From positions 51 through 64,050 of the forward strand of contig CAKOPG010000009.1 of assembly GCA_934098745.1 (NCBI GenBank): a stretch of DNA of 64,000 nucleotides. Reading direction: 5' to 3'. Positions within the stretch are counted from its first letter, which is position 1. Each line of letters starts with the position of its first letter. A model generated the notes under the pieces. The model was not told where the DNA came from. It did no database searches and saw only the letters and a program-made list of their open reading frames with translations. The stretch comes from an uncultured Bacilli bacterium. Its GTDB lineage: Bacteria; Bacillota_I; Bacilli_A; RF39; UBA660. The translations under genes were made by a program, and so were the position numbers. Below, one piece after another: positions 22-51,686 of the stretch.

Positions 22-95
22 TGGAGCAGATGAGGAGAATCGAACTCCCGTCAGGAGCTTGGAAGGCTCTTATTCTACCATTAAACTACATCTGC
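22..95 (-). tRNA. tRNA-Gly (anticodon TCC)
   Basis: The reverse complement reads GCAGATG...AGAGC-CTTCCAA-GCTCC-TGAC-GGGAG-TTCGATT-CTCCT-CATCTGC-T-CCA. It has a 7-bp acceptor stem, a canonical T arm, the anticodon loop CT-TCC-AA, discriminator U and an encoded CCA. Confidence 0.9.
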
Positions 96-10395: not shown

Positions 10396-10472
10396 GGCGG
10401 ATTTGGTGAAGTGGTTAACACATTGGATTGTGGTTCCAACATGCGTGGGTTCGATTCCCACAATCCGTCCCA
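10396..10472 (+). tRNA. tRNA-His (anticodon GTG)
   Basis: GGCGGATT...TTGGA-TTGTGGT-TCCAA...GTGGG-TTCGATT-CCCAC-AATCCGT-C-CCA. The extra G-1 opposite C73 is typical of tRNA-His. CCA is encoded. Confidence 0.9.
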
Positions 10473-12091: not shown

Positions 12092-12430
12092 TTATAACTT
12101 TGTTTTAGTATTGTTAGACATTACACAAATCATATTAATAACAAAATCAAGTTCTGAATTAGAAAGATATGAACAATATTGCGTTACTTTCTTAATTTTA
12201 TTAAGCTTAGCTTCAGCTCCAGCTTTACCATCTAAATTAATACCTAATAAAGAATCTATACTGATACTGAAAGCCTCAGCTAATCTAGTCAATACCTCTG
12301 CCGTAGGCAAAGATTTATTAGTTTCTATTCTTGATAAATAATTTCTATTGATTTTCAAAATTTTAGCCATTTCTTCCTGACTAATATTATTATTGTATCT
12401 AATATTCTTGATTTTACTTCCTAAATCCAT
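12092..12430 (-). CDS. XRE-family helix-turn-helix transcriptional regulator
   Basis: N-terminal HTH_3 pattern (IKNIRYNNNISQEEMAKILKINRNYLSRIETNKSLP). RBS GGAGGT. Confidence 0.8.
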   Translation of the reverse strand: MDLGSKIKNIRYNNNISQEEMAKILKINRNYLSRIETNKSLPTAEVLTRLAEAFSISIDSLLGINLDGKAGAEAKLNKIKKVTQYCSYLSNSELDFVINMICVMSNNTKTKL

Positions 12431-12505
12431 AATTACCTCCATAAAACATATAACACATAATAATTATAATAAAATATGTATCATAATTCCCTCTGTTATC
12501 AAAAT

Positions 12506-13466: not shown

Positions 13467-13700
13467 TATCAAAAACCAAGACCGAGAGGAGTAAGATATT
13501 TTTAATTCAAAGAGAGTTAGTGTTTGGTGTAAACTAATAATTATAATATCTGAAGGTAGCTCGTGAGTTGTATATTTGAAATTAAGTAGAATATACCGGT
13601 TAACCCCGTTAAAGTTTCAAGTGATAGATTAGTCTATAAGAAAGGTGGTACCACGAGTAGTCTCGCCCTTTCATTATAGACTTTTTATTTTTTAGAAAGG
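13467..13700 (+). promoter_or_regulatory. T-box leader (tRNA-sensing riboswitch) controlling valS
   Basis: The consensus-like promoter TTGTAA (13432-13437), 17-nt spacer, TATAAT (13455-13460) precedes it. AGAGA-type stem I elements are present. The conserved T-box core AAAGGTGGTACCACG is at 13641-13655, followed by a terminator arm and T-runs just before valS. Confidence 0.8.
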
Positions 13701-13709
13701 AATGATATT

Positions 13710-16247
13710 ATGTTAGAAAAAAAATATAATCATAAAGAAGTTGAAAGTGGAAAATATAGCAAATGGCAAGAATCTGGTTATTTTAATTCCGGAGATTTAT
13801 CCAAGGAACCTTACTGTATTGTTATTCCTCCTCCAAATGTAACTGGTAAATTACACCTAGGACATGCTTGGGATACCGCCTTACAAGATATCATTATTAG
13901 ATATAAAAGAATGCAAGGATATGATTGCCTTTGGTTGCCAGGAATGGATCATGCCGGCATCGCTACTCAAGCAAAAATCGATAAACGCCTTCGTGATGAA
14001 GGAATTAATCCGCGTAGCTTAACTAGAGAAGAGTGGTTGGAACATGCTTGGGCTTGGAAAAAAGAATATGCTGACTTTATTCATACTCAGTGGGCTCGTC
14101 TTGGCCTAAGCCTAGATTATTCTAAAGAAAGATTTACTCTTGATGAAGGACTAAATTATGCGGTTAGAAAAGTTTTCGTAGATTTATATAATAAAGGACT
14201 TATCTATCGTGGCGAAAGAATTATTAACTGGGATCCCGTTCAAATGACGGCCTTATCGAGTGAAGAAGTTATTTATAAAGAAGATAAAGGAGCTTTCTAT
14301 CACATAAAATATTATATTGATGGCACAGATAAATATCTTGATGTCGCTACTACTAGACCAGAAACCCTATTCGGAGATACTGCTGTTGCTGTAAATCCTA
14401 AAGATGAAAGATATAAAGAATATATTGGTAAAAATGTTATATTACCAATTGTAGGTAAAAAAATTCCTATTATTGCTGATAATCATGCCGACCCAGAATT
14501 TGGTACCGGTGTTGTTAAAATCACTCCTGCACATGATCCTAATGACTTTGAAGTAGGAAATAGACACCATCTAGAAAGAGTCGTAATCATGAATCCTGAT
14601 GCTACCATGAATGAATTAACTGGTAAATATCAAGGTATGACAAGAGAGGCATGCCGTGAAGAATTAATTAAAGATTTACAAGAACAAGATCTTCTTATTA
14701 GTATTGAAGAAATGACGCACTCTGTAGGACATTCTGAAAGAAGTGACGCTGTAATTGAACCATACCTATCAAAACAATGGTTTGTAAAAATGCGTCCTTT
14801 AGCAGATGCTGTACTAGCTAATCAAAAAAATAAAGATACCAAAGTAAATTTTGTTCCAGAAAGATTTGAAAAAATTATGAATCACTGGATGGAAATAACT
14901 TATGATTGGTGTATTTCTCGTCAACTATGGTGGGGTCATCGTATTCCTGTTTGGTATAAAGATGATGAAGTATATTGTGGCATGGAAGCCCCTAAAGGCG
15001 AAGGTTGGGTTCAAGACCCTGATGTTCTAGATACATGGTTCTCATCAGCTTTATGGCCATTTTCTACCCTTGGTTGGCCTAATGATACTGCCGATTTTAA
15101 AAGATACTATCCTAATAACGTTCTAGTAACTGGTTATGATATTATTCCTTTTTGGGTTAATCGTATGACTTTCCAAGGCCTTGAATTCACCGGTCGTCGT
15201 CCATTTAAAGATTGCTTAATACACGGTCTTATTCGAGATAAACTAGGTAGAAAATTCTCTAAATCCCTAGGTAATGGTGTTGATCCTATGGATATGTGTG
15301 AAATATATGGCGCTGATGCTCTAAGATATTACCTAACAACCACTGCTGCTAATGGTACAGATATTCGTTTTGATGAAGATAAAATTAAAGCTACTTGGAA
15401 CTTCATAAACAAACTATGGAATGCCACAAGATTTACTCTTCTAAATATTGAAGATTTAAAAGAAATTAAACTAGATAATTTGAATGTTGCGGATAAATGG
15501 ATCTTATCAAAATATGAAAAAACAATAAAAGAAGTAACAAAGTATATGGATAAATATGAATTTAATAATGCTACCAATACAATATATACATTTACTTGGT
15601 CTAATTTCTGTGATAATTATATTGAAATGTCTAAATTCACTATTGATAAATGTTCGACAAAATCAACATTATGCTACGTCCTAACAGGTATACTAAAAAT
15701 GCTTAGCCCATTTATGCCATTTGTAACAGATGAATTATATTGTAATCTCCCAATTAAAGATGCTAAAGACATTATGATCTCTTCTTATCCAAAATATGAT
15801 AAATCATTAATAAGTTCTACCAAAGAATTAGATGAAGCTATTGAATTTATAACTCTATATAGGAATAAAATAAAAGAACTAAATATCAAAAATTACCAAG
15901 TAATTAATCATATTGACAATGTCGAAATATCTACCTTAGTTCTAAATATGCTAAAACTAAATGATAAAATAACCACTAATAACAATTCATTTGAATTAAA
16001 AGAAACTATTAAATTAGGAACTCTATTTATAGAAGTACTATATAATGATGAAGTAGATCATCAAAAAGAGTTAGAAAGTCTTCTTAAAGAAAAAGAAAAA
16101 TTAATCGGTTCTATTGCCAGAAGAGAAAAATTACTATCAAATGAAAACTATGTTGCTAAAGCTCCTGCAAGTGTAGTAGAATTAGATCGTACTAACTTAG
16201 CAAAAGAGGAGAGTAGACTAAAAGAAATTTTAGAAAAGTTAAACTAA
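13710..16247 (+). CDS. valS: Valyl-tRNA synthetase
   Basis: Class I HIGH (GKLHLGHAW) and KMSKS-like (KFSKSLGN) motifs. C-terminal coiled coil. 845 aa. Confidence 0.97.
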   Translation: MLEKKYNHKEVESGKYSKWQESGYFNSGDLSKEPYCIVIPPPNVTGKLHLGHAWDTALQDIIIRYKRMQGYDCLWLPGMDHAGIATQAKIDKRLRDEGINPRSLTREEWLEHAWAWKKEYADFIHTQWARLGLSLDYSKERFTLDEGLNYAVRKVFVDLYNKGLIYRGERIINWDPVQMTALSSEEVIYKEDKGAFYHIKYYIDGTDKYLDVATTRPETLFGDTAVAVNPKDERYKEYIGKNVILPIVGKKIPIIADNHADPEFGTGVVKITPAHDPNDFEVGNRHHLERVVIMNPDATMNELTGKYQGMTREACREELIKDLQEQDLLISIEEMTHSVGHSERSDAVIEPYLSKQWFVKMRPLADAVLANQKNKDTKVNFVPERFEKIMNHWMEITYDWCISRQLWWGHRIPVWYKDDEVYCGMEAPKGEGWVQDPDVLDTWFSSALWPFSTLGWPNDTADFKRYYPNNVLVTGYDIIPFWVNRMTFQGLEFTGRRPFKDCLIHGLIRDKLGRKFSKSLGNGVDPMDMCEIYGADALRYYLTTTAANGTDIRFDEDKIKATWNFINKLWNATRFTLLNIEDLKEIKLDNLNVADKWILSKYEKTIKEVTKYMDKYEFNNATNTIYTFTWSNFCDNYIEMSKFTIDKCSTKSTLCYVLTGILKMLSPFMPFVTDELYCNLPIKDAKDIMISSYPKYDKSLISSTKELDEAIEFITLYRNKIKELNIKNYQVINHIDNVEISTLVLNMLKLNDKITTNNNSFELKETIKLGTLFIEVLYNDEVDHQKELESLLKEKEKLIGSIARREKLLSNENYVAKAPASVVELDRTNLAKEESRLKEILEKLN

Positions 16248-21407: not shown

Positions 21408-24400
21408 ATGATCATATATGTTTTCAATAATAATTATCTAAATAAAATTAATCTCCCGGTAAAAGTTAGTGGTGTCTATCAATTACATGGAAAAAATAAC
21501 CTTTTTCTAGGTAATTTTGAAGCTACAAATGATTCGTGGAACTTTATCCCTGCTAGTAGTGTTCTTCTAGATTATCAAAGTAATCCTAAAATTACTAATT
21601 ATGAAGAAATAATCATCACTGACACCATTAGTCAAGAAAAATATATGATTTATAGTATTCCCACTTATGATCAAAATAATTTTAAATGTCTTGCCCAAAA
21701 AGATAATATTACTATTGGTAGCGATGGTAGTAAAGATATAACATACCGTAAAAATATTATGGATAACGGACTCATTTCATTGACATATACCACCAATGGT
21801 TGGTATTTAGAAACTAATTATCAAAATGTTTTCGTTATGGATAAACCGGTAACAAAAACTTATCTACTAGATGGAGATTACTTATTTTTCTATGGATTAA
21901 AAATAATTTTTTATGGCAAAATAATTCTTATCAATAATCCTAATAATTTAGTAACTATTAATAGTGCTTCGCTTTCTCCATATCAAGATAATAATGCTTT
22001 TGAATTGGTTGAGTCAACTATCCCTGAAGATACCCCATTATATACAAAAGATGATTATTTTTTTAAATCGCCCCGTTTTGATACAGTTATTGAAGAAGAA
22101 ACTGTAAAAATAGATGAACCACCAGCTCCCGAAGATACCGAGTCAACCCCGTTAATTACTACTATAGGTCCGCAATTGACAATGCTTTGTACTTCTGGTA
22201 TCTCTATTGCTTCAACTATTTACTCATTTACCAATAATGGTGGCTCAGGAGTTAATAATAAACCTCGATTGATATTGTCGATATCTACCATGGTTGTTAC
22301 TATGATTGGCGCTTTCTTATGGCCTGGAATAGTCAGAAATATCAATAAAAATAAATCTCTTACCAAAGAGTCTAAAAGAAAACAAAAATATAACCGTTAC
22401 CTAGAGAGAAAAAAACAAGAAATAGAAACTATTAAGTTAAAACAAAAACAGATACTTACCGAAAATGCCTTAACAAGTGAAAAGTGTATCGAAGCCATTA
22501 ATCAAAAAAATAGATTATTATGGCAAAGAAATATAGAACACGATGATTTCTTACAAATAAGATTAGGTACAGGACGTGTTGAAACAAAAATCAAAGTAGA
22601 TATTCCTGAAGATAAATTTACTGTCGAAGATACTGATAAAATGTATGATTTACTTCAAGGAGTAGTTCAGAAATCATTAACTATAGATAATGCTCCTCAA
22701 TGTGTAACTCTTACTGAAGATTTTATTACTGCTATTGTTGGTAAAGATGAATTAATTAAAAGTTTCTTAGATAATGTCTTTCTTCAAATAATGACTCTTC
22801 ATTCTTATGCCGAATTAAAAATTATTGTCTATACCAAAGATGAAGATAAATGGAATTATTTAAAAATTATTCCTCATTGCTGGGATAATTCTAAAAAAGT
22901 AAGATATTTTGCTACTTCTATTGAAGAACTTACCGAAGTTACTGCTGAAATTGAAAAAACATTCGATAGTAGAGTTAAACAAGAAGAAGATGCCAAAAAA
23001 GAAGAAGATGGTGCTAAAGAAGATGACAAGAATATATATAAAGAATATAAACCATATTATCTAATATTTACCGATGATATCTCTAGCATTAGAAATGTTC
23101 CTCTAATCAAAAAAGTTTTAAAATATAAACAAAATGTTGGTTTTTCCATTATGATGGCCAATGACCGTTTATCTAATCTACCAAGTGAAACTACTTCATT
23201 TGTTATTGTAGCTTTACCGGAGTCTGGTTTAATTCGTAACGAATTAACTAAAGCCAATCAAAAGCCATTTATTGCTGATTTCTTACAAAATATTGACATC
23301 TACGAATATGCTCAAAAAATTGCTAACATTCCCATAGTAGTCGAAAAATCCAAATATGAATTACCAAATAGTTTATCTTTCTTAGAAATGTATAATGTTG
23401 GTAAAGTAGAACAACTAAATATAAGTGAAAGATGGGTAAATAATAATCCTACTAATAACTTATCTGTTCCCATAGGAATCGATCAAAATGGTGAAATCTT
23501 TAAAATGGATATTCATGAAAGTGCTTATGGTCCTCATGGCTTAATTGCAGGAACAACTGGTAGTGGTAAATCAGAATGGATTATTACCTATATTCTTTCC
23601 TTAGCGGTAAATTATCACCCAGATGAATTGCAATTCGTCTTAATAGACTATAAAGGTGGTGGCTTAGCTTTAAGTTTTGAAAATGAACAATTAGGTATAA
23701 AATTACCACACTTAGCTGGTACTATTACCAACCTTGATAAATCAGAAATAAATAGATCTATTGCCTCTATGGAATCAGAACTAAAAAGAAGACAACAAGT
23801 TTTTAATGAAGCCCGTGAAAAACTAAAAGAAGGTTCGATGAACATCTATAAATATCAAGAATTTTATCGCAAAGGTCTCGTCTCTGAACCAATGAGCCAT
23901 CTATTAATTATTTGTGATGAATTTGCTGAATTAAAACAACAACAACCAGAATTTATGGAACAATTAATATCTATTTCTCGTATTGGTCGTAGTTTAGGAG
24001 TTCATCTAATTTTAGCTACCCAAAAGCCAAGTGGAGTTGTCAATGATCAAATATGGTCTAACTCTAAATTTAAAGTCTGCTTAAAAGTACAAGATCGAAG
24101 TGATTCCAACGAAATTCTAAAAAAACCAGATGCGGCATACCTAAAACAAACCGGTTCATTTTATCTAGAAGTTGGTAATGATGATTATTACAATTTAGGA
24201 CAATCAGCTTGGGCTGGAGCTAAGTATTACCCATCAGAAACAATGCAAAAGAAAATAGATCAGTCTGTAGCATACATTAGTAATACAGGAAAAGTTATCA
24301 GTAGTTTTGATGATGAAAGAATACGAGATACTAAAAAGGAATGTAAGGGTGAAGAATTAATAAATATAATTAAATATATTGATGAAGTAAGTAGAAAAGA

Positions 24401-25982
24401 AACTCTTGTAAAAAGACAACTATGGTTACCTAATGTTCCCAAAGTATCCTACTTACAAAATCTATATAAAAAATATCCTCACAAAGTATTACCATATACA
24501 TATAACATCGCAATAGGGGAATATGATGAACCACGTAAACAACAACAAGGATTGTTGGAAGTAGATTTAGCAAAAGGAAATATTGGTATTATTGGCCAAG
24601 TAGGATCTGGTAAAGAAATGTTGATATCTACATTAATATGGTCAAGTTTAAGTGAACATACTCCTCAAGAAATAAATTACTATATAATTGATATGGGGGC
24701 AGAAACATTAAAAAAATTCTCTAAATTTCCTCATGTTGGCGAAGTAGTTACCCAAGAAGAACCTGATAAAATAATTGGCGTATTAGAATTAATCTTAGAA
24801 GAACAAGATAAAAGAAAAGAAGAATTTGTTGATTATAATGGTTCATTTGAATACTATAACAAAGTAAGTAAAAATAAAAAACCACTTATTGTTGTAGTAA
24901 TAAATGGTGTTGAAATATTTGATGAAGTAATGCCTAAAATATCAGAAACTATCAATACCATGTATCGTGATGGCCCAAGATATGGTATTATTTACATCTC
25001 TAGTACATCTTCTCAAAGTGGTTTAAGACAAAGACAATTACAGTACTTTAATCATACCATCGTAATGCAGATGCAAGATGATTCTTATTACCGTTCCATA
25101 ACCAACTGTCGAAGAGGTTTATTACCAGGTAAATCAATCGGTAGAGGTATATGTAAAATAGGTGAAGATGTTGACTCTTATTGTGAATTTCAAACTGCTT
25201 ACTTTATTGAAGATAGCAAACAAATTGAGTTTTTAAATGCTACTGCTACGAAAATGATTACGCATTATAAAACTAAAGCTAAACAGTTAGCTAAAGTACC
25301 AGATAGTGTAACAAGTGATGAATTAACTAAATATATAACTACTATGGAAAGTGTCCCTATAGGTTATAACTTCTATGAAAAAACAATTAGTAAATATAAC
25401 TTTACTAAAGAAAAAATATATCTAATAACTGGTAAAAATATTAAAGAAAATATTAAATTTATCTATGGATTAACAAGTATTTTAAGTAAAATATCTAATG
25501 TTAAAGTAAGAGTAATAGATATGCTAAGTATCTTTAACAAACCAATACTAGATATTAAAATATTTAATGACAAAATAGATGAAGTTTTTGCTGCTATAGA
25601 AAAAGATGTATTAACCAGAACTATTACTCAAGATAATGCTATTAATATTATTATTGGTATTGGAAGATATAAACAATATTTAAAATCAGGTGGTATTGAA
25701 ATATTCCAAAATGTTTTTAATAAAATACCATTATCTAAAAAAGAAACCTTTATCTTAATAGATGACTATGATAAATTAAAAGCTCTTAAATTAGAATCCT
25801 GGTATAGTCAAATTAATAATAATGAAGGTATATGGTTAGGACCTGGACTAAGTAACCAAAGCATTTTTGCTACTAATGAAATGACTCAAGAGGATAAAAA
25901 ATATAACTATGAAGGACTTGCCTATACTATAACTGATGCCAAATATACTGTTATTAAAACTGTTATGGATGGTGATGAATAA
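21408..25982 (+). CDS. essC: Type VII secretion FtsK/SpoIIIE-family ATPase EssC/YukB
   Basis: 1524 aa. FHA-like N-terminus, two TM segments around residues 250-310, and three P-loop domains (GTTGSGKSE with DEFAELK, then the degenerate GQVGSGKE, then a third module). Confidence 0.9.
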   Translation: MIIYVFNNNYLNKINLPVKVSGVYQLHGKNNLFLGNFEATNDSWNFIPASSVLLDYQSNPKITNYEEIIITDTISQEKYMIYSIPTYDQNNFKCLAQKDNITIGSDGSKDITYRKNIMDNGLISLTYTTNGWYLETNYQNVFVMDKPVTKTYLLDGDYLFFYGLKIIFYGKIILINNPNNLVTINSASLSPYQDNNAFELVESTIPEDTPLYTKDDYFFKSPRFDTVIEEETVKIDEPPAPEDTESTPLITTIGPQLTMLCTSGISIASTIYSFTNNGGSGVNNKPRLILSISTMVVTMIGAFLWPGIVRNINKNKSLTKESKRKQKYNRYLERKKQEIETIKLKQKQILTENALTSEKCIEAINQKNRLLWQRNIEHDDFLQIRLGTGRVETKIKVDIPEDKFTVEDTDKMYDLLQGVVQKSLTIDNAPQCVTLTEDFITAIVGKDELIKSFLDNVFLQIMTLHSYAELKIIVYTKDEDKWNYLKIIPHCWDNSKKVRYFATSIEELTEVTAEIEKTFDSRVKQEEDAKKEEDGAKEDDKNIYKEYKPYYLIFTDDISSIRNVPLIKKVLKYKQNVGFSIMMANDRLSNLPSETTSFVIVALPESGLIRNELTKANQKPFIADFLQNIDIYEYAQKIANIPIVVEKSKYELPNSLSFLEMYNVGKVEQLNISERWVNNNPTNNLSVPIGIDQNGEIFKMDIHESAYGPHGLIAGTTGSGKSEWIITYILSLAVNYHPDELQFVLIDYKGGGLALSFENEQLGIKLPHLAGTITNLDKSEINRSIASMESELKRRQQVFNEAREKLKEGSMNIYKYQEFYRKGLVSEPMSHLLIICDEFAELKQQQPEFMEQLISISRIGRSLGVHLILATQKPSGVVNDQIWSNSKFKVCLKVQDRSDSNEILKKPDAAYLKQTGSFYLEVGNDDYYNLGQSAWAGAKYYPSETMQKKIDQSVAYISNTGKVISSFDDERIRDTKKECKGEELINIIKYIDEVSRKETLVKRQLWLPNVPKVSYLQNLYKKYPHKVLPYTYNIAIGEYDEPRKQQQGLLEVDLAKGNIGIIGQVGSGKEMLISTLIWSSLSEHTPQEINYYIIDMGAETLKKFSKFPHVGEVVTQEEPDKIIGVLELILEEQDKRKEEFVDYNGSFEYYNKVSKNKKPLIVVVINGVEIFDEVMPKISETINTMYRDGPRYGIIYISSTSSQSGLRQRQLQYFNHTIVMQMQDDSYYRSITNCRRGLLPGKSIGRGICKIGEDVDSYCEFQTAYFIEDSKQIEFLNATATKMITHYKTKAKQLAKVPDSVTSDELTKYITTMESVPIGYNFYEKTISKYNFTKEKIYLITGKNIKENIKFIYGLTSILSKISNVKVRVIDMLSIFNKPILDIKIFNDKIDEVFAAIEKDVLTRTITQDNAINIIIGIGRYKQYLKSGGIEIFQNVFNKIPLSKKETFILIDDYDKLKALKLESWYSQINNNEGIWLGPGLSNQSIFATNEMTQEDKKYNYEGLAYTITDAKYTVIKTVMDGDE

Positions 25983-47960: not shown

Positions 47961-48039
47961 CTATTGTTTAATTTTTAAAAATAGTATATAATACTTAACA
48001 AGTGAATAATTACATCAAAATTACAAAAAATATTACTAG
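47961..48039 (+). repeat. Left direct repeat of the retron/Rpn islet (decayed copy of the rluB promoter and 5' end)
   Basis: 47961-48000 is identical over 40 bp to 50422-50461. The next ~39 bp match about two-thirds, and the rluB ATG is mutated. Confidence 0.9.
47964..47992 (+). promoter_or_regulatory. Sigma-A promoter inside the left repeat, oriented into the retron
   Basis: TTGTTT (47964-47969), 17-nt spacer, TATAAT (47987-47992). The same element lies upstream of rluB in the right repeat. Confidence 0.6.
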
Positions 48040-48088
48040 ATTTAATAGTTTAATTATTGAAAGAACCATCATCTAAATAGTAAAATTA

Positions 48089-48264
48089 TATATAGCAATA
48101 GCGTGTGGATAAATATCCCCTTTAACGAGTCGTTAAAGCACCTAATTATTAAAGACATGAATTATAATTTTCCATAGGACCTAACTATGGCTAGCCATAG
48201 ACACTTCATTACATTACGTTAAGTCCAATTCCAAATTATAATATCATAAAGTATTGCTTATATA
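48089..48264 (+). ncRNA. Retron msr-msd non-coding RNA
   Basis: a1 TATATAGCAATA (48089-48100) is complementary to a2 TATTGCTTATATA (48252-48264) with one bulge. TAGCG follows a1. Hairpins lie at 48107-48118 and 48120-48138 (CTTTAACG-AGT-CGTTAAAG). A long imperfect hairpin spans 48161-48242 (ATTATAATTT/AAATTATAAT) with the apex palindrome CTATGGCTAGCCATAG. Confidence 0.7.
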
Positions 48265-48281
48265 CCGAGGAGGTAATAAAT

Positions 48282-49253
48282 ATGTGGAAATATCTGACTA
48301 AAGAAGCCGAAATCAAATATTTATTATCTATTCATTTAATTGATGGCACTAGTGATAAAGATATCTTAAATAAAATATATACAATAAGTAACAATAAAGA
48401 GAAAAATTATAAAATATATAAAATAAAAAAGAAAAATGGTCATTATCGTACTATTTATGCACCTAAACCTAATCTCTTAATTATTCAAAAAAATATCTTA
48501 AAAAATATTCTTGAAAAGAGAAGTATTTCTAAATATGCTAGAGCTTATAAAAAAGGAATAACCCTAGTTGATAATGCCAAGGAGCATCTAAATAAAAAAA
48601 TAATTCTTAAATTAGATATAAAAGATTTTTTTAACAGTATCCAATATATTCAGATATATAATACCTGTTTTCCTCAAGAATTATTTCCTAAATCCATTGG
48701 AACTCTTCTTACAAATTTATGCACTTGTTATGATATTCTTCCTCAAGGGGCACCAACCTCATCATATATTTCTAATCTTGTTATGTATAATTTTGACATA
48801 ATCATAGGGACATTTTGTGACAGTAGAAATATTGCCTACACAAGATATTGTGATGATATGACCTTTTCTGGAGATTTTGATTATCATGAAATAATTAATC
48901 TTGTAAAACAAGAACTGACAAAATTAAATTTATCTCTAAACATGAAAAAAATTCATGTAATTACCCAAAAGAGTAGGCAAATAGTTACCGGTGTAGTCGT
49001 CAATAAGAAATTACAGGTAGCTAAATATTATCGTCAAGAAATAAGAAAAAATGTATACTATATAAAAAAGTATGGCCTTATTTCTCATTTAGGAAGAACA
49101 AATAACAAAATGGCCCCAGTTACTTACCTAAATACCTTATTGGGAAAGATTAATTATGTTTTGCAAATAGATAAATCTAACAAAGAATTTATAAATTATA
49201 AAAAAGAAATCCTAAAAACAATTAAAAACATTCATAATAAAAAAATAATTTAG
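48282..49253 (+). CDS. Retron-type reverse transcriptase
   Basis: 323 aa. NAKEH (NAxxH), QGAPTSSYISN, RYCDDMTFSG (YxDD) and RQIVTGVVVN (VTG) motifs. RBS GAGGAGG. Confidence 0.85.
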   Translation: MWKYLTKEAEIKYLLSIHLIDGTSDKDILNKIYTISNNKEKNYKIYKIKKKNGHYRTIYAPKPNLLIIQKNILKNILEKRSISKYARAYKKGITLVDNAKEHLNKKIILKLDIKDFFNSIQYIQIYNTCFPQELFPKSIGTLLTNLCTCYDILPQGAPTSSYISNLVMYNFDIIIGTFCDSRNIAYTRYCDDMTFSGDFDYHEIINLVKQELTKLNLSLNMKKIHVITQKSRQIVTGVVVNKKLQVAKYYRQEIRKNVYYIKKYGLISHLGRTNNKMAPVTYLNTLLGKINYVLQIDKSNKEFINYKKEILKTIKNIHNKKII

Positions 49254-49336
49254 TTATCTCTCAACGCTATTGTTTTGTTAGTCATTTGACATATTTTTAT
49301 GTAAAATAATTAAATTTATTAATTTATAAAAATTAG

Positions 49337-49377
49337 AAAAACAGTTAAAATACAATATAAATATTTAACTGTTTTTT
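49337..49377 (+). terminator. Rho-independent terminator after the RT gene
   Basis: AAAAACAGTTAAA-(14 nt)-TTTAACTGTTTTT. Confidence 0.7.
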
Positions 49378-49510: not shown

Positions 49511-50326
49511 ATGGCTAAATTTTACAAAATAAGTACAGACGGTATGTTTAAATCTATCTTTGAAAACGAAAACAATAAGCATCTATTAGAAAGAATAATT
49601 GAAGAAGTAATTAAAGAAAAAGTAATTATTACCAAATTACTAGTACCAGAACTAAGAAAAAATAAAATAACTGTAAAAGGAAAGACTTTAGACGTATTAG
49701 TAAAAACAGATAATAAAGAAATTAATATAGAGATTAACTCTTCAATGTATGATGATATTAAAAGAAGAAATGCTGGATTTATTTTCAGAAGATATAGTGA
49801 TTCCGTTGGTATAGGGGGAAGTTATGATAAAATGCCAGGGTTTATTCAAATAAACTTTTCAGCTAATTTAGGAAAGAATTATCCCATGGTAGCGGAATAC
49901 AATTTATATGATGAAAAGGCAAAATTAATGTTCATTAACAACTTCAAAATATATGAAATAAATCTTGAAAAGTATAAGAAGTTTTGCTATGATAATAATA
50001 TCTTAAGTCTCATATCAATGCTCGATATGGACTATGGAGAATTAATAAATGTTAAGGGTGATAAAGATATGGAAAAATTAAGAGATGAAGCACTAACATT
50101 AAATAATGATTCAGAACTTTTAAATTATTTGTCAGATGAAGAGGAAGAAAAATTAATTAAAAATACATACATATCAAAGGGCATTGAAAAAGGTATTGAG
50201 CAAGGTGTTGAGCAAAATAAAATAGAAATGGTTAAAAAGATGCTAAAAGAAAACATCGATATTAGCATTATATCTAGAATATCTGGATTAAGCAAAAGTG
50301 AAATAGAGAAGATTAGAAAAAATTAA
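49511..50326 (+). CDS. Rpn/YhgA-like PD-(D/E)XK nuclease family protein (TIGR01784-type putative transposase)
   Basis: N-terminal DGMFKSIF...LL and KGKTLDVLVKTDNKEINIEINSS (D...ExN core in place of ExQ/K). The C-terminal GIEKGIEQGVEQNKIEMVKKMLKENIDISIISRISGLSKSEIEKIRK repeat-plus-HTH tail is typical of the family. Own promoter: TTGACA (49464-49469), 17 nt, TATAAC (49487-49492). Confidence 0.75.
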   Translation: MAKFYKISTDGMFKSIFENENNKHLLERIIEEVIKEKVIITKLLVPELRKNKITVKGKTLDVLVKTDNKEINIEINSSMYDDIKRRNAGFIFRRYSDSVGIGGSYDKMPGFIQINFSANLGKNYPMVAEYNLYDEKAKLMFINNFKIYEINLEKYKKFCYDNNILSLISMLDMDYGELINVKGDKDMEKLRDEALTLNNDSELLNYLSDEEEEKLIKNTYISKGIEKGIEQGVEQNKIEMVKKMLKENIDISIISRISGLSKSEIEKIRKN

Positions 50327-50421: not shown

Positions 50422-50500
50422 CTATTGTTTAATTTTTAAAAATAGTATATAATACTTAACAGGTGAACAAGTATGGAAAGATTACAAAAAGTAATAGCTG
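50422..50500 (+). repeat. Right direct repeat (functional rluB promoter and start)
   Basis: Partner of 47961-48039. Contains the rluB -35/-10 elements, RBS and first codons. Confidence 0.9.
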
Positions 50501-51189
50501 ACTTAGGATATTCTTCAAGAAGAAAAGCCGAAGAACTAATCCAAGAAGGCAAAGTTAAAGTAAATGGAATAACCATTACAAAACTAGGTACTAAGGTAAA
50601 AAGTAGCGATACTATTGAAGTAGAAAACACTATTTTAGATAACAATAAAAATTATGAATATTATCTTTTGAATAAGCCCCGTGAAGTAATTTCTTCTGCT
50701 CGTGATGAACACGGTAGAACAACCGTAGTTGATTTAATAAAAACAAGCCAAAGAATATATCCTATAGGAAGACTTGATTATGACACTACTGGAATAATTC
50801 TTTTGACAAATGATGGTAATCTTGCTAACAAACTAATGCATCCATCTAGTAAAATTGAAAAAAAATATGTAGCTAAAGTAAGTGGTTTGGTTACTGGGTA
50901 TGATATAAAAAGGCTTCGCGAAGGCGTTATCGTAGATGGCAAAATTACTGCTAAAGCCAAAGTAGATTTGAAAAAATATGATAAAAAAACAGATAAATCT
51001 CTTGTAGAATTGACTATTCATGAAGGTAGAAACCATCAAGTCAAAAAAATGTTTGAAGCCATTAATCATGATGTTATAAAATTAAAAAGAGAAAAATACG
51101 CTAATCTGGATTTAACTGGTTTAAAACCTGGAGAATATCGTCATCTAACTAACAAAGAAATAGCTGTTTTATATTCATTAGTGAAGTAA
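50473..51189 (+). CDS. rluB: Pseudouridine synthase, RsuA/RluB family
   Basis: N-terminal S4 domain (RLQKVIADLGYSSRRKAEELI) and the catalytic RLDYDTTGIILLTNDG. Confidence 0.9.
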   Translation: MERLQKVIADLGYSSRRKAEELIQEGKVKVNGITITKLGTKVKSSDTIEVENTILDNNKNYEYYLLNKPREVISSARDEHGRTTVVDLIKTSQRIYPIGRLDYDTTGIILLTNDGNLANKLMHPSSKIEKKYVAKVSGLVTGYDIKRLREGVIVDGKITAKAKVDLKKYDKKTDKSLVELTIHEGRNHQVKKMFEAINHDVIKLKREKYANLDLTGLKPGEYRHLTNKEIAVLYSLVK

Positions 51190-51191
51190 AA

Positions 51192-51686
51192 ATGTTAAAT
51201 AGTATTATTTTCTTAGACATCGATGGTGTTTTAAATTCAGATAGTACCTTTAAAGAAAACGAAGGCTTTAGTAAAGCTATTTCAAAGTTACCAAAAAATA
51301 GCTCTCCTTCACCCCTTTATTTAAGTCAAATAAATGATTTGGATAATAATAAAATATCTCTAATTAAAGAATTATCCCATGTTACAAATTCCAAAATTGT
51401 TATCACTTCAACATGGAGAAATCTAAAAATATGGCCATTAATAGAAGAATATCTAATTACCAAAGGTTTGCCCGTTATTGATACAACCCCATATATAGAG
51501 AATAATCGTAGCAAAGAAATAGCTACATATCTAAAAGAACATCCGGATATTTCCAATTTTATAATTATTGATGATGACTTCTTTCCCGGATATGAAGAAT
51601 ATTGCGATAAATTTATTCATCCTAGTTTTTATCAAGATGGCTTTACCGAAGAACATCTAGAATTAGCTAAAACTCTCTTAAAGTAA
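51192..51686 (+). CDS. HAD-like hydrolase domain protein
   Basis: IIFLDIDGVLNS motif I and IIIDDD motif IV-like. 164 aa. Confidence 0.5.
   Translation: MLNSIIFLDIDGVLNSDSTFKENEGFSKAISKLPKNSSPSPLYLSQINDLDNNKISLIKELSHVTNSKIVITSTWRNLKIWPLIEEYLITKGLPVIDTTPYIENNRSKEIATYLKEHPDISNFIIIDDDFFPGYEEYCDKFIHPSFYQDGFTEEHLELAKTLLK

Follow-up and report, generated by a model that had tools for sequence, protein, structure and literature searches.

Does the locus at 48089-49253 of the DNA studied here encode a retron, and if so, of which type and with which partner? The DNA is a stretch of 64,000 nt from an uncultured Bacilli bacterium (assembly GCA_934098745.1, contig CAKOPG010000009.1, positions 51 to 64,050 of the forward strand), which we call the window. 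An initial annotation had described the locus as a complete retron, that is, a reverse transcriptase (RT) preceded by its msr-msd non-coding RNA (ncRNA), in a low-GC Firmicute. Our analysis confirmed the retron: the RT belongs to the retron clade, and a covarying ncRNA lies directly upstream of it. We consider it highly probable that the element is a stand-alone Ec107-like retron of RT clade 2, carried chromosomally by a low-GC member of the gut Bacilli. As for the host, a low-GC Firmicute, the GC content of the window is 28.2%, the window holds a T-box leader and genes for SpoVS, SpoIIR and RNase Y, and the relatives are labelled as Bacilli bacterium metagenome-assembled genomes from animal guts.

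We compared the predicted protein with several profile and structure collections. A search with hidden Markov models (HMMs), one of the checks suggested with the annotation, placed the RT in RT_Ec107-like: this was the top PADLOC model, matched over the full length (E = 3.7e-122, 405.5 bits), and the RT_III-A models came second (346.8 bits, E = 2.9e-104). The RT_VI model scored far below RT_Ec107-like, and 25 of the 25 PADLOC hits listed were retron-clade RT models. NCBIfam gave its generic retron St85 family with 218 bits, just under the cutoff of 235 bits, a match that is uninformative on the subtype. The 12 best PDB chains were all retron RTs, with Ec86 first (8e-32), whereas the match to Drt2 was weak (about 1e-10 to 1e-15). 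Pfam found RVT_1 alone, and neither Pfam nor PADLOC showed an extra domain fused to the RT. Because the PADLOC, NCBIfam and PDB matches are retron RTs, the protein at 48282-49253 is a retron RT, and not an enzyme of a group II intron, a diversity-generating retroelement (DGR), an abortive infection (Abi) system or a defence-associated RT (DRT) system. Thousands of relatives were found in a database search.

The translation reads DNAKEH in region X (NAxxH), then YCDD, and VTGVVVN in region Y (VTG), the motifs being those defined for retron RTs (PMC7736814, PMC6868368). The annotation had used all three to set retron RTs apart from other RTs. All are present, but YCDD does not make this separation. 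NAxxH and VTG were kept across 24 relatives of the RT, among which the catalytic box was Y[CS]DD. Simon et al. singled out YCDD as a peculiarity of Ec107, most retron RTs having YADD (PMC6868368). In 90+ loci, which have diverged to 43-68% identity, the open reading frame (ORF) is unbroken and keeps every catalytic motif.

The region in front of the RT was folded as a single sequence. The minimum free energy (MFE) fold of 48080-48280 reproduced the full architecture, with the closure of a1 by a2, two msr hairpins and a long msd hairpin. These elements and the 16-nt palindrome of the msd were all found where the annotation had placed them (Table 1). The two arms of the msd hairpin (48161-48185 and 48218-48242) are 80% complementary, and the palindrome at 48185-48200 (CTATGGCT/AGCCATAG) forms its tip. 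As DNA, the complement of the msd forms a hairpin of -11.9 kcal/mol, far more stable than shuffles (z = -4.39).

Rfam gave no retron RNA family, either in a local scan at E <= 10 or over the whole window at gathering thresholds. For this reason, we built our own covariance model. About 100 loci of RT relatives were gathered (labels such as L006 denote such loci), the upstream regions of six relatives were aligned, and covariance model R1 was made from their RNAalifold consensus, in which 13 of 40 pairs already had compensatory changes. R1 matched 69 sources: the window itself, 67 other loci and a match truncated at its 5' end. All of these matches are on the strand of the RT, with about 10-60 nt between their end and the start of the RT. 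R1 also recognized the ncRNA of Ec107 (see below).

Covariation statistics were computed on alignment A4 (56 distinct sequences, 40 pairs), which was fitted to R1. Standard pairs made up 94.9% of the pair cells, compared with 79% in column shuffles and 29-44% with slid partners, and double changes occurred in 39 of the 40 pairs, which none of 500 shuffles reached. In helix 1 (a1/a2), 97.4% of the cells were paired and all 8 pairs had compensatory changes; the values were 81.7% with double changes in 4/4 pairs for helix 2 (msr hairpin 1), 99.1% with 7/8 for helix 3 (msr hairpin 2), and 90-99% with 20/20 for helices 4-6 (msd). The covariation across homologues strongly supports the predicted msr-msd structure.

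Single positions were also informative. The motif AGCG follows a1, where the annotation had noticed a branching-G context. G48101, the first unpaired base 3' of a1, was G in 55 of 55 distinct homologues, while the adjoining stem positions vary. G48251 was G in 56 of 56. Mestre et al. have described two opposing G residues in retron ncRNAs (PMC7736814); G48101 and G48251 are these two residues, and by inference G48101 is the predicted branching G. The apex CGAGUCG of msr hairpin 2 was near-invariant among the homologues, and is likely to be an element recognized by the RT.

The relation to Ec107 was explored directly. We located Ec107 by comparing the slmA-pyrE region of K-12 with complete E. 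coli genomes and choosing one where this interval is broken by a 'reverse transcriptase family protein'. The window RT is 41% identical to the Ec107 RT over 300 aa, with YCDD common to both. R1, built solely from low-GC Bacilli sequences, detected the E. coli Ec107 ncRNA with 38.1 bits (E = 8.7e-8), and both the location and the strand of the match were correct. The two ncRNAs have the blocks GCAAUAGCG, CGAGUCG, GUAUUGC and GGUAUUGC in common, and the context CAAUAGCG around the predicted branching G is identical in Ec107. Because of the RT identity, the YCDD box and the R1 match, both the RT and the ncRNA are, by these sequence comparisons, homologous to those of Ec107.

Retron-Eco5 (Ec107) is the closest known system, with the same a1-G context, the same hairpin apex and the same a2. 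Like the present element, it is an msr-msd-RT cassette without an accessory gene, in a chromosomal intergenic region between housekeeping genes and outside any prophage (PMC6868368). The two differ as follows: the host here is a gut Bacilli bacterium of 28% GC and not E. coli, the GC content of the ncRNA is 31% as against 56% in Ec107, the position is beside rluB and is syntenic over several species-level relatives, and the present locus has an Rpn-type nuclease gene and is flanked by a duplication of 84 nt. Type III-A retrons (e.g., Retron-Eco11, type III-A3) are also related systems, and the RT_III-A models are the second-best match of the RT; Mestre et al. placed the Ec107 branch on a node shared with RTs linked to phosphoribosyltransferase (PRTase) (PMC7736814). 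However, type III-A has a PRTase-like effector and a winged-helix protein, and we found neither beside the RT nor elsewhere in the window. Retron-Eco1 (Ec86, type II-A3) has the closest solved RT and the same overall ncRNA plan, and 2'-5' primed production of multicopy single-stranded DNA (msDNA) is expected to follow the same mechanism, but Ec86 differs in its nucleoside deoxyribosyltransferase (NDT)-like effector, its YADD box, its RT clade and its ncRNA family.

From the behaviour of the family we infer how msDNA would be made, where its branch and stop points would lie and which role it may have. The msr-msd RNA and the RT message would come from one transcript ending at the hairpin at 49336-49377. 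The RNA would fold with a1 closed by a2, and the RT would dock on the msr hairpins, probably through the CGAGUCG apex. The 2'-OH of G48101 would then prime synthesis, the msd being copied leftwards from just 5' of G48251; synthesis would pass the msd hairpin and halt close to where msr and msd meet. This would yield a branched RNA-DNA msDNA, with a hairpin DNA part of roughly 90-100 nt.

The promoter-like site in Table 1 would start transcription about the 5' end of a1; promoter-like sites are no commoner in the region than in shuffles, which makes this site weak evidence, and in the alignment its TAAAAT box falls on the region around the stop codon of rluB in the relatives. The terminator-like hairpin begins 83 nt past the RT stop and before the next gene. 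A terminator consensus scan missed it because its stem has few G-C pairs.

Table 1. Positions of the retron and of the features around it in the window.
Feature	Position	Strand	Remarks
Left copy of direct repeat	47961-48044	+	Decayed duplicate of rluB promoter and first 33 nt of rluB
Promoter-like site	48057-48086	+	TTGAAA, 18-nt spacer, TAAAAT; top consensus match in region, 10/12
a1, 5' arm of closing inverted repeat	48089-48100 (MFE 48088/9-48100)	+	TATATAGCAATA; pairs with a2
Predicted branching guanosine	48101	+	First unpaired base 3' of a1; 2'-OH would prime synthesis
msr hairpin 1	48107-48118	+	GGAT/ATCC; in MFE and consensus fold
msr hairpin 2	48120-48138	+	CTTTAACG-AGT-CGTTAAAG; in MFE; apex CGAGUCG at 48126-48132
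msd, long imperfect hairpin	48161-48242	+	Predicted template for msDNA; inverted repeats I1 and I23; in MFE
Invariant G 5' of a2	48251	+	Opposite branching G; predicted start of reverse transcription
a2, 3' arm of closing inverted repeat	48252-48264	+	TATTGCTTATATA; one bulged T in a1/a2 pairing
Ribosome binding site (RBS) of RT	48268-48274	+	GAGGAGG, 7 nt before ATG; within AGGAGGTA block invariant in eight aligned relatives
Retron RT ORF	48282-49253	+	323 aa, ATG start
Terminator-like hairpin	49336-49377	+	AT-rich, then T run; -11.4 kcal/mol, z = -4.39, 0/200 shuffles
Rpn-family PD-(D/E)XK putative nuclease/transposase	49511-50326	+	271 aa; PF12784 5.9e-13, TIGR01784 6.8e-16
Right copy of direct repeat	50422-50505	+	Functional rluB promoter, RBS and start codon

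Retrons are now viewed as tripartite, and we asked whether an effector accompanies the RT and its RNA. The gene upstream of the retron is a divergently oriented short-chain dehydrogenase (SDR) gene, and the one downstream encodes the Rpn/PDDEXK_2 putative nuclease or transposase; neither product matched a retron accessory model in PADLOC, Pfam or NCBIfam. Proteins within three genes of the RT were clustered over 94 family loci, which form 58 RT groups at 90% identity. No neighbour cluster occurred in more than 5 of the 58 groups, and the genes immediately downstream on the same strand were unrelated to one another across the loci. A PADLOC scan of 44 further ORFs of the window gave generic matches and nothing retron-specific, and no PRTase-like match, as type III-A would have, was found in the 64-kb window at E 1e-8. 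Neither the RT domains, nor the 94 loci, nor the window showed a conserved effector in cis or fused to the RT. The annotation's word 'complete' thus holds in the two-part sense of RT plus ncRNA; in the tripartite view no effector gene is attached, which is typical of the Ec107 branch (PMC7736814). This lack agrees with the published description of the branch as orphan (PMC7736814; 10.64898/2026.05.14.725207).

Several candidate partners were rejected. An HTH_VI match at 12092-12442 on the minus strand (9.3e-17) suggested a type VI accessory protein, but it lies 36 kb from the retron in a generic Cro/C1 regulator of 116 aa that also matches capH and control-protein models; the type VI arrangement, a small Cro/C1 helix-turn-helix (HTH) gene adjoining a clade 3 RT, was not found here. 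The mad8, SspH and HerA matches of PADLOC all correspond to the FtsK/HerA-type ATPase domain of one 1,524-aa protein (21408-25982, +), seemingly of a conjugative element. A third candidate came from the relatives. In one sub-lineage, the ncRNA is preceded on its own strand by the gene of an AAA_15/AAA_21 ATPase of about 290-300 aa (PtuA/AriA/GajA-like), with 10-20 nt between the gene end and the ncRNA (725-1633 in L046, 1446-2354 in L047; also L032, L038, L050-L052, L055, L056 and L059). This gene might be an accessory gene that has escaped report, or simply a neighbour peculiar to the lineage. As a hidden effector of the whole family it was rejected, being restricted to this close sub-lineage, broken in two loci and not present in the window.

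Another arrangement was seen in L015 (6948-7908) and also in L016, where the RT stop overlaps a 138-aa ORF without family match, which in turn overlaps a NUDIX hydrolase gene; it looks like an operon. In L013, a NUDIX gene likewise lies a few genes downstream of the RT.

We then investigated the history of the locus. In L006, L009 and L010, the closest relatives with long contigs, the retron is found in the same housekeeping neighbourhood, in the order lysS - dcuC-like - SDR(-) - rluB - ncRNA - RT - spoVS(-) - alr, and their ncRNA begins at the stop codon of rluB. The window reads SDR(-) - retron - Rpn - rluB. Protein identities of the window to the three loci were 92-97% for SpoVS, 86-87% for LysS, 78-87% for RluB, 72-77% for SDR, 64-67% for the RT, 63-64% for Alr and 54-67% for the DcuC-like protein; thus, the divergence of the RT is about that of the housekeeping genes that evolve faster (Alr and DcuC-like). 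In more distant relatives (RT identity <=62%), the retron is located elsewhere. The syntenic position beside rluB and the housekeeping-like divergence suggest that the retron was vertically inherited within the clade of the window, L006, L009 and L010.

The different order in the window may be explained by a direct repeat, D1, which brackets the retron and the Rpn gene. Its two copies are 84 nt long, 83% identical, with the first 43 nt identical, and spaced by 2,461 nt. The repeat aligns with the intergenic promoter region that L006, L009 and L010 have only once, between SDR and rluB, and extends over the first 33 nt of rluB. About 40 nt between the left copy and a1 (48045-48083) bear a weak likeness to a decayed rluB 3' end, which suggests that an internally deleted copy of rluB once stood upstream of the retron. 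In the simplest reading, the ancestral arrangement was promoter-rluB-retron; through a duplication and then an internal deletion, the retron came to stand behind a copied rluB promoter, with an intact rluB downstream, and the Rpn gene arrived between them. Contigs of 2,481 bp with only the RT and Rpn genes recur in several independent Logan assemblies. We rejected their reading as presence/absence polymorphism of a mobile cassette; they reflect an assembly break at the repeat, because a perfect repeat of 43 nt at a spacing of 2,461 nt exceeds the typical assembly k-mer.

Taken as a stand-alone Ec107-like retron, the element has to be weighed against several points that tell the other way. The single-sequence fold of 48080-48280, although it has the a1/a2-closed architecture, only modestly beats shuffles (z = -1.93; 7/200). 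The fitting of A4 to R1 inflates the percentage of paired cells, though it does not create the many double substitutions. The clade placement comes from HMM scores and pairwise identity and not from a tree. For this element and for any close relative, msDNA is a prediction and not an experimental result. The search for an effector in trans covered 64 kb of the genome. Finally, the Rpn gene is a possible lineage-specific partner, lying on the same strand 258 nt downstream, inside the same repeat-flanked segment of 2.46 kb.

How would such a retron work? Our best guess is that the RT-msDNA complex acts without a cis-encoded toxin, alone or with a partner encoded elsewhere, and possibly in stress or stationary-phase physiology, as has been reported or hinted for Ec107; a classical three-gene abortive-infection module is unlikely. 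That the ORFs are intact and the syntenic position is conserved in L006, L009 and L010 argues for a maintained function. A more specific proposal, which we put forward tentatively and would not expect to be right in full, is that in this gut Bacilli lineage the retron is a vertically inherited chromosomal gene tied to rluB, with a toxin-free host function (regulation in stress or stationary phase, or an msDNA complex that itself interferes directly with phage), and not a mobile defence island.

Among the alternatives, a tripartite defence retron of the classical kind, with its effector gene in trans elsewhere in the genome, survives best, but we regard it as rather doubtful. Mestre et al. raised trans effectors for the orphan branch, and also noted that most genomes with orphan retrons are without homologues of known retron-associated proteins (PMC7736814). 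We inspected 64 kb of the genome and found no such gene there. The PtuA/AriA-like ATPase directly upstream of the ncRNA in one sub-lineage indicates that the branch can adjoin defence-type ATPases; however, with 87-100% identity among its loci and broken copies in L049 and L060, it may be a mere lineage-specific neighbour.

It is less probable still that the retron and the Rpn/PDDEXK_2 nuclease make up a defence module of two genes in which the nuclease is the effector. Besides the position of its gene, this idea draws on the PD-(D/E)XK nuclease fold of the Rpn protein, on the fact that retron effectors are often nucleases (PMC7736814), and on a partial match (30%) that L002 has two genes downstream of its RT. 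Yet the Rpn gene is absent beside the RTs of the 90+ other loci of the family, among them the closest syntenic relatives L006, L009 and L010, the terminator-like hairpin separates the two genes, and the Rpn protein has no meaningful PADLOC match. Moreover, Rpn genes are common, putative transposase-like genes, and their adjacency here may reflect the rearrangement that moved the retron.

A decaying, non-functional relic that has lost its effector is very improbable. Mestre et al. suggested that the Ec107 branch has lost an ancestral PRTase-like partner (PMC7736814), and decayed rluB fragments remain at the locus as scars of rearrangement. Against decay of the retron itself stand the catalytic motifs, retained at 43-68% identity in so many loci, the compensatory changes that keep the RNA helices, the invariant branch G and RBS, and an RT identity (64-67%) similar to that of Alr and DcuC in the same genomes. 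Lastly, the view that the ORF is another bacterial RT (group II intron, DGR, Abi or DRT) with a coincidental fold upstream, which could appeal to the generic RVT_1 of Pfam and the lack of an Rfam match, is effectively refuted by the uniformly retron-clade PADLOC hits, a Drt2 match far weaker than that of Ec86, the NAxxH and VTG motifs, searches that found no maturase domain and no intron RNA, and an RNA that covaries and is homologous to that of Ec107.

The novelty of a Firmicute retron was stated too broadly in the annotation. It is true that few have been studied experimentally, but such retrons, of a branch common among gut Firmicutes, are catalogued: a 2026 survey of SPIRE metagenomes lists 192 clade2_Ec107like retrons, of which 178 (93%) are in Bacillota, mostly host-associated, and reports no recurrent accessory module with them (10.64898/2026.05.14.725207). 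Mestre et al. counted 59 stand-alone cassettes around Ec107 and left open whether they use trans effectors or a different mechanism (PMC7736814). The Ec107-like clade also has a published covariance model. Since the clade, its bias towards Bacillota and its lack of accessory genes have been described, the discovery value of the present locus is small. What we add is modest: a fully mapped ncRNA with explicit homology to Ec107, an apparently vertical, syntenic inheritance beside rluB, and a duplication scar.

Orphan retrons are those with RT and ncRNA and no effector. A well-defined example from a Firmicute offers a clean construct for asking about their msDNA production, phage defence and binding partners, with a1/a2 mapped, the branch G predicted, a loop proposed for recognition by the RT, a terminator and the homology link to Ec107. 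The element may also serve retron tools in low-GC Gram-positive hosts, because clade 2 retrons are good producers of RT-DNA; in an experimental census, clade 2 was among the best (PMC10849725).

Some other features of the window were recorded. A 164-aa HAD_SAK_2 protein is encoded at 51192-51686 (+), starting 3 nt past the rluB stop, and its gene is not at the corresponding position in L006, L009 and L010. HAD_SAK_2 is the HAD domain of 'Swiss Army Knife' RNA repair proteins. The T-box leader lies at 13469-13673 (+, 153 bits), upstream of an 845-aa ORF (13710-16247), which is most likely the class I aminoacyl-tRNA synthetase match found by Pfam among the window ORFs. Two tRNA genes are present, tRNA-Gly at 22-95 (-) and tRNA-His at 10397-10472 (+). 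Pfam also found T4SS-DNA_transf and Amidase_3 domains elsewhere in the window than in the 1,524-aa protein, and roughly 16-34 kb of the window looks like part of an integrative conjugative element.

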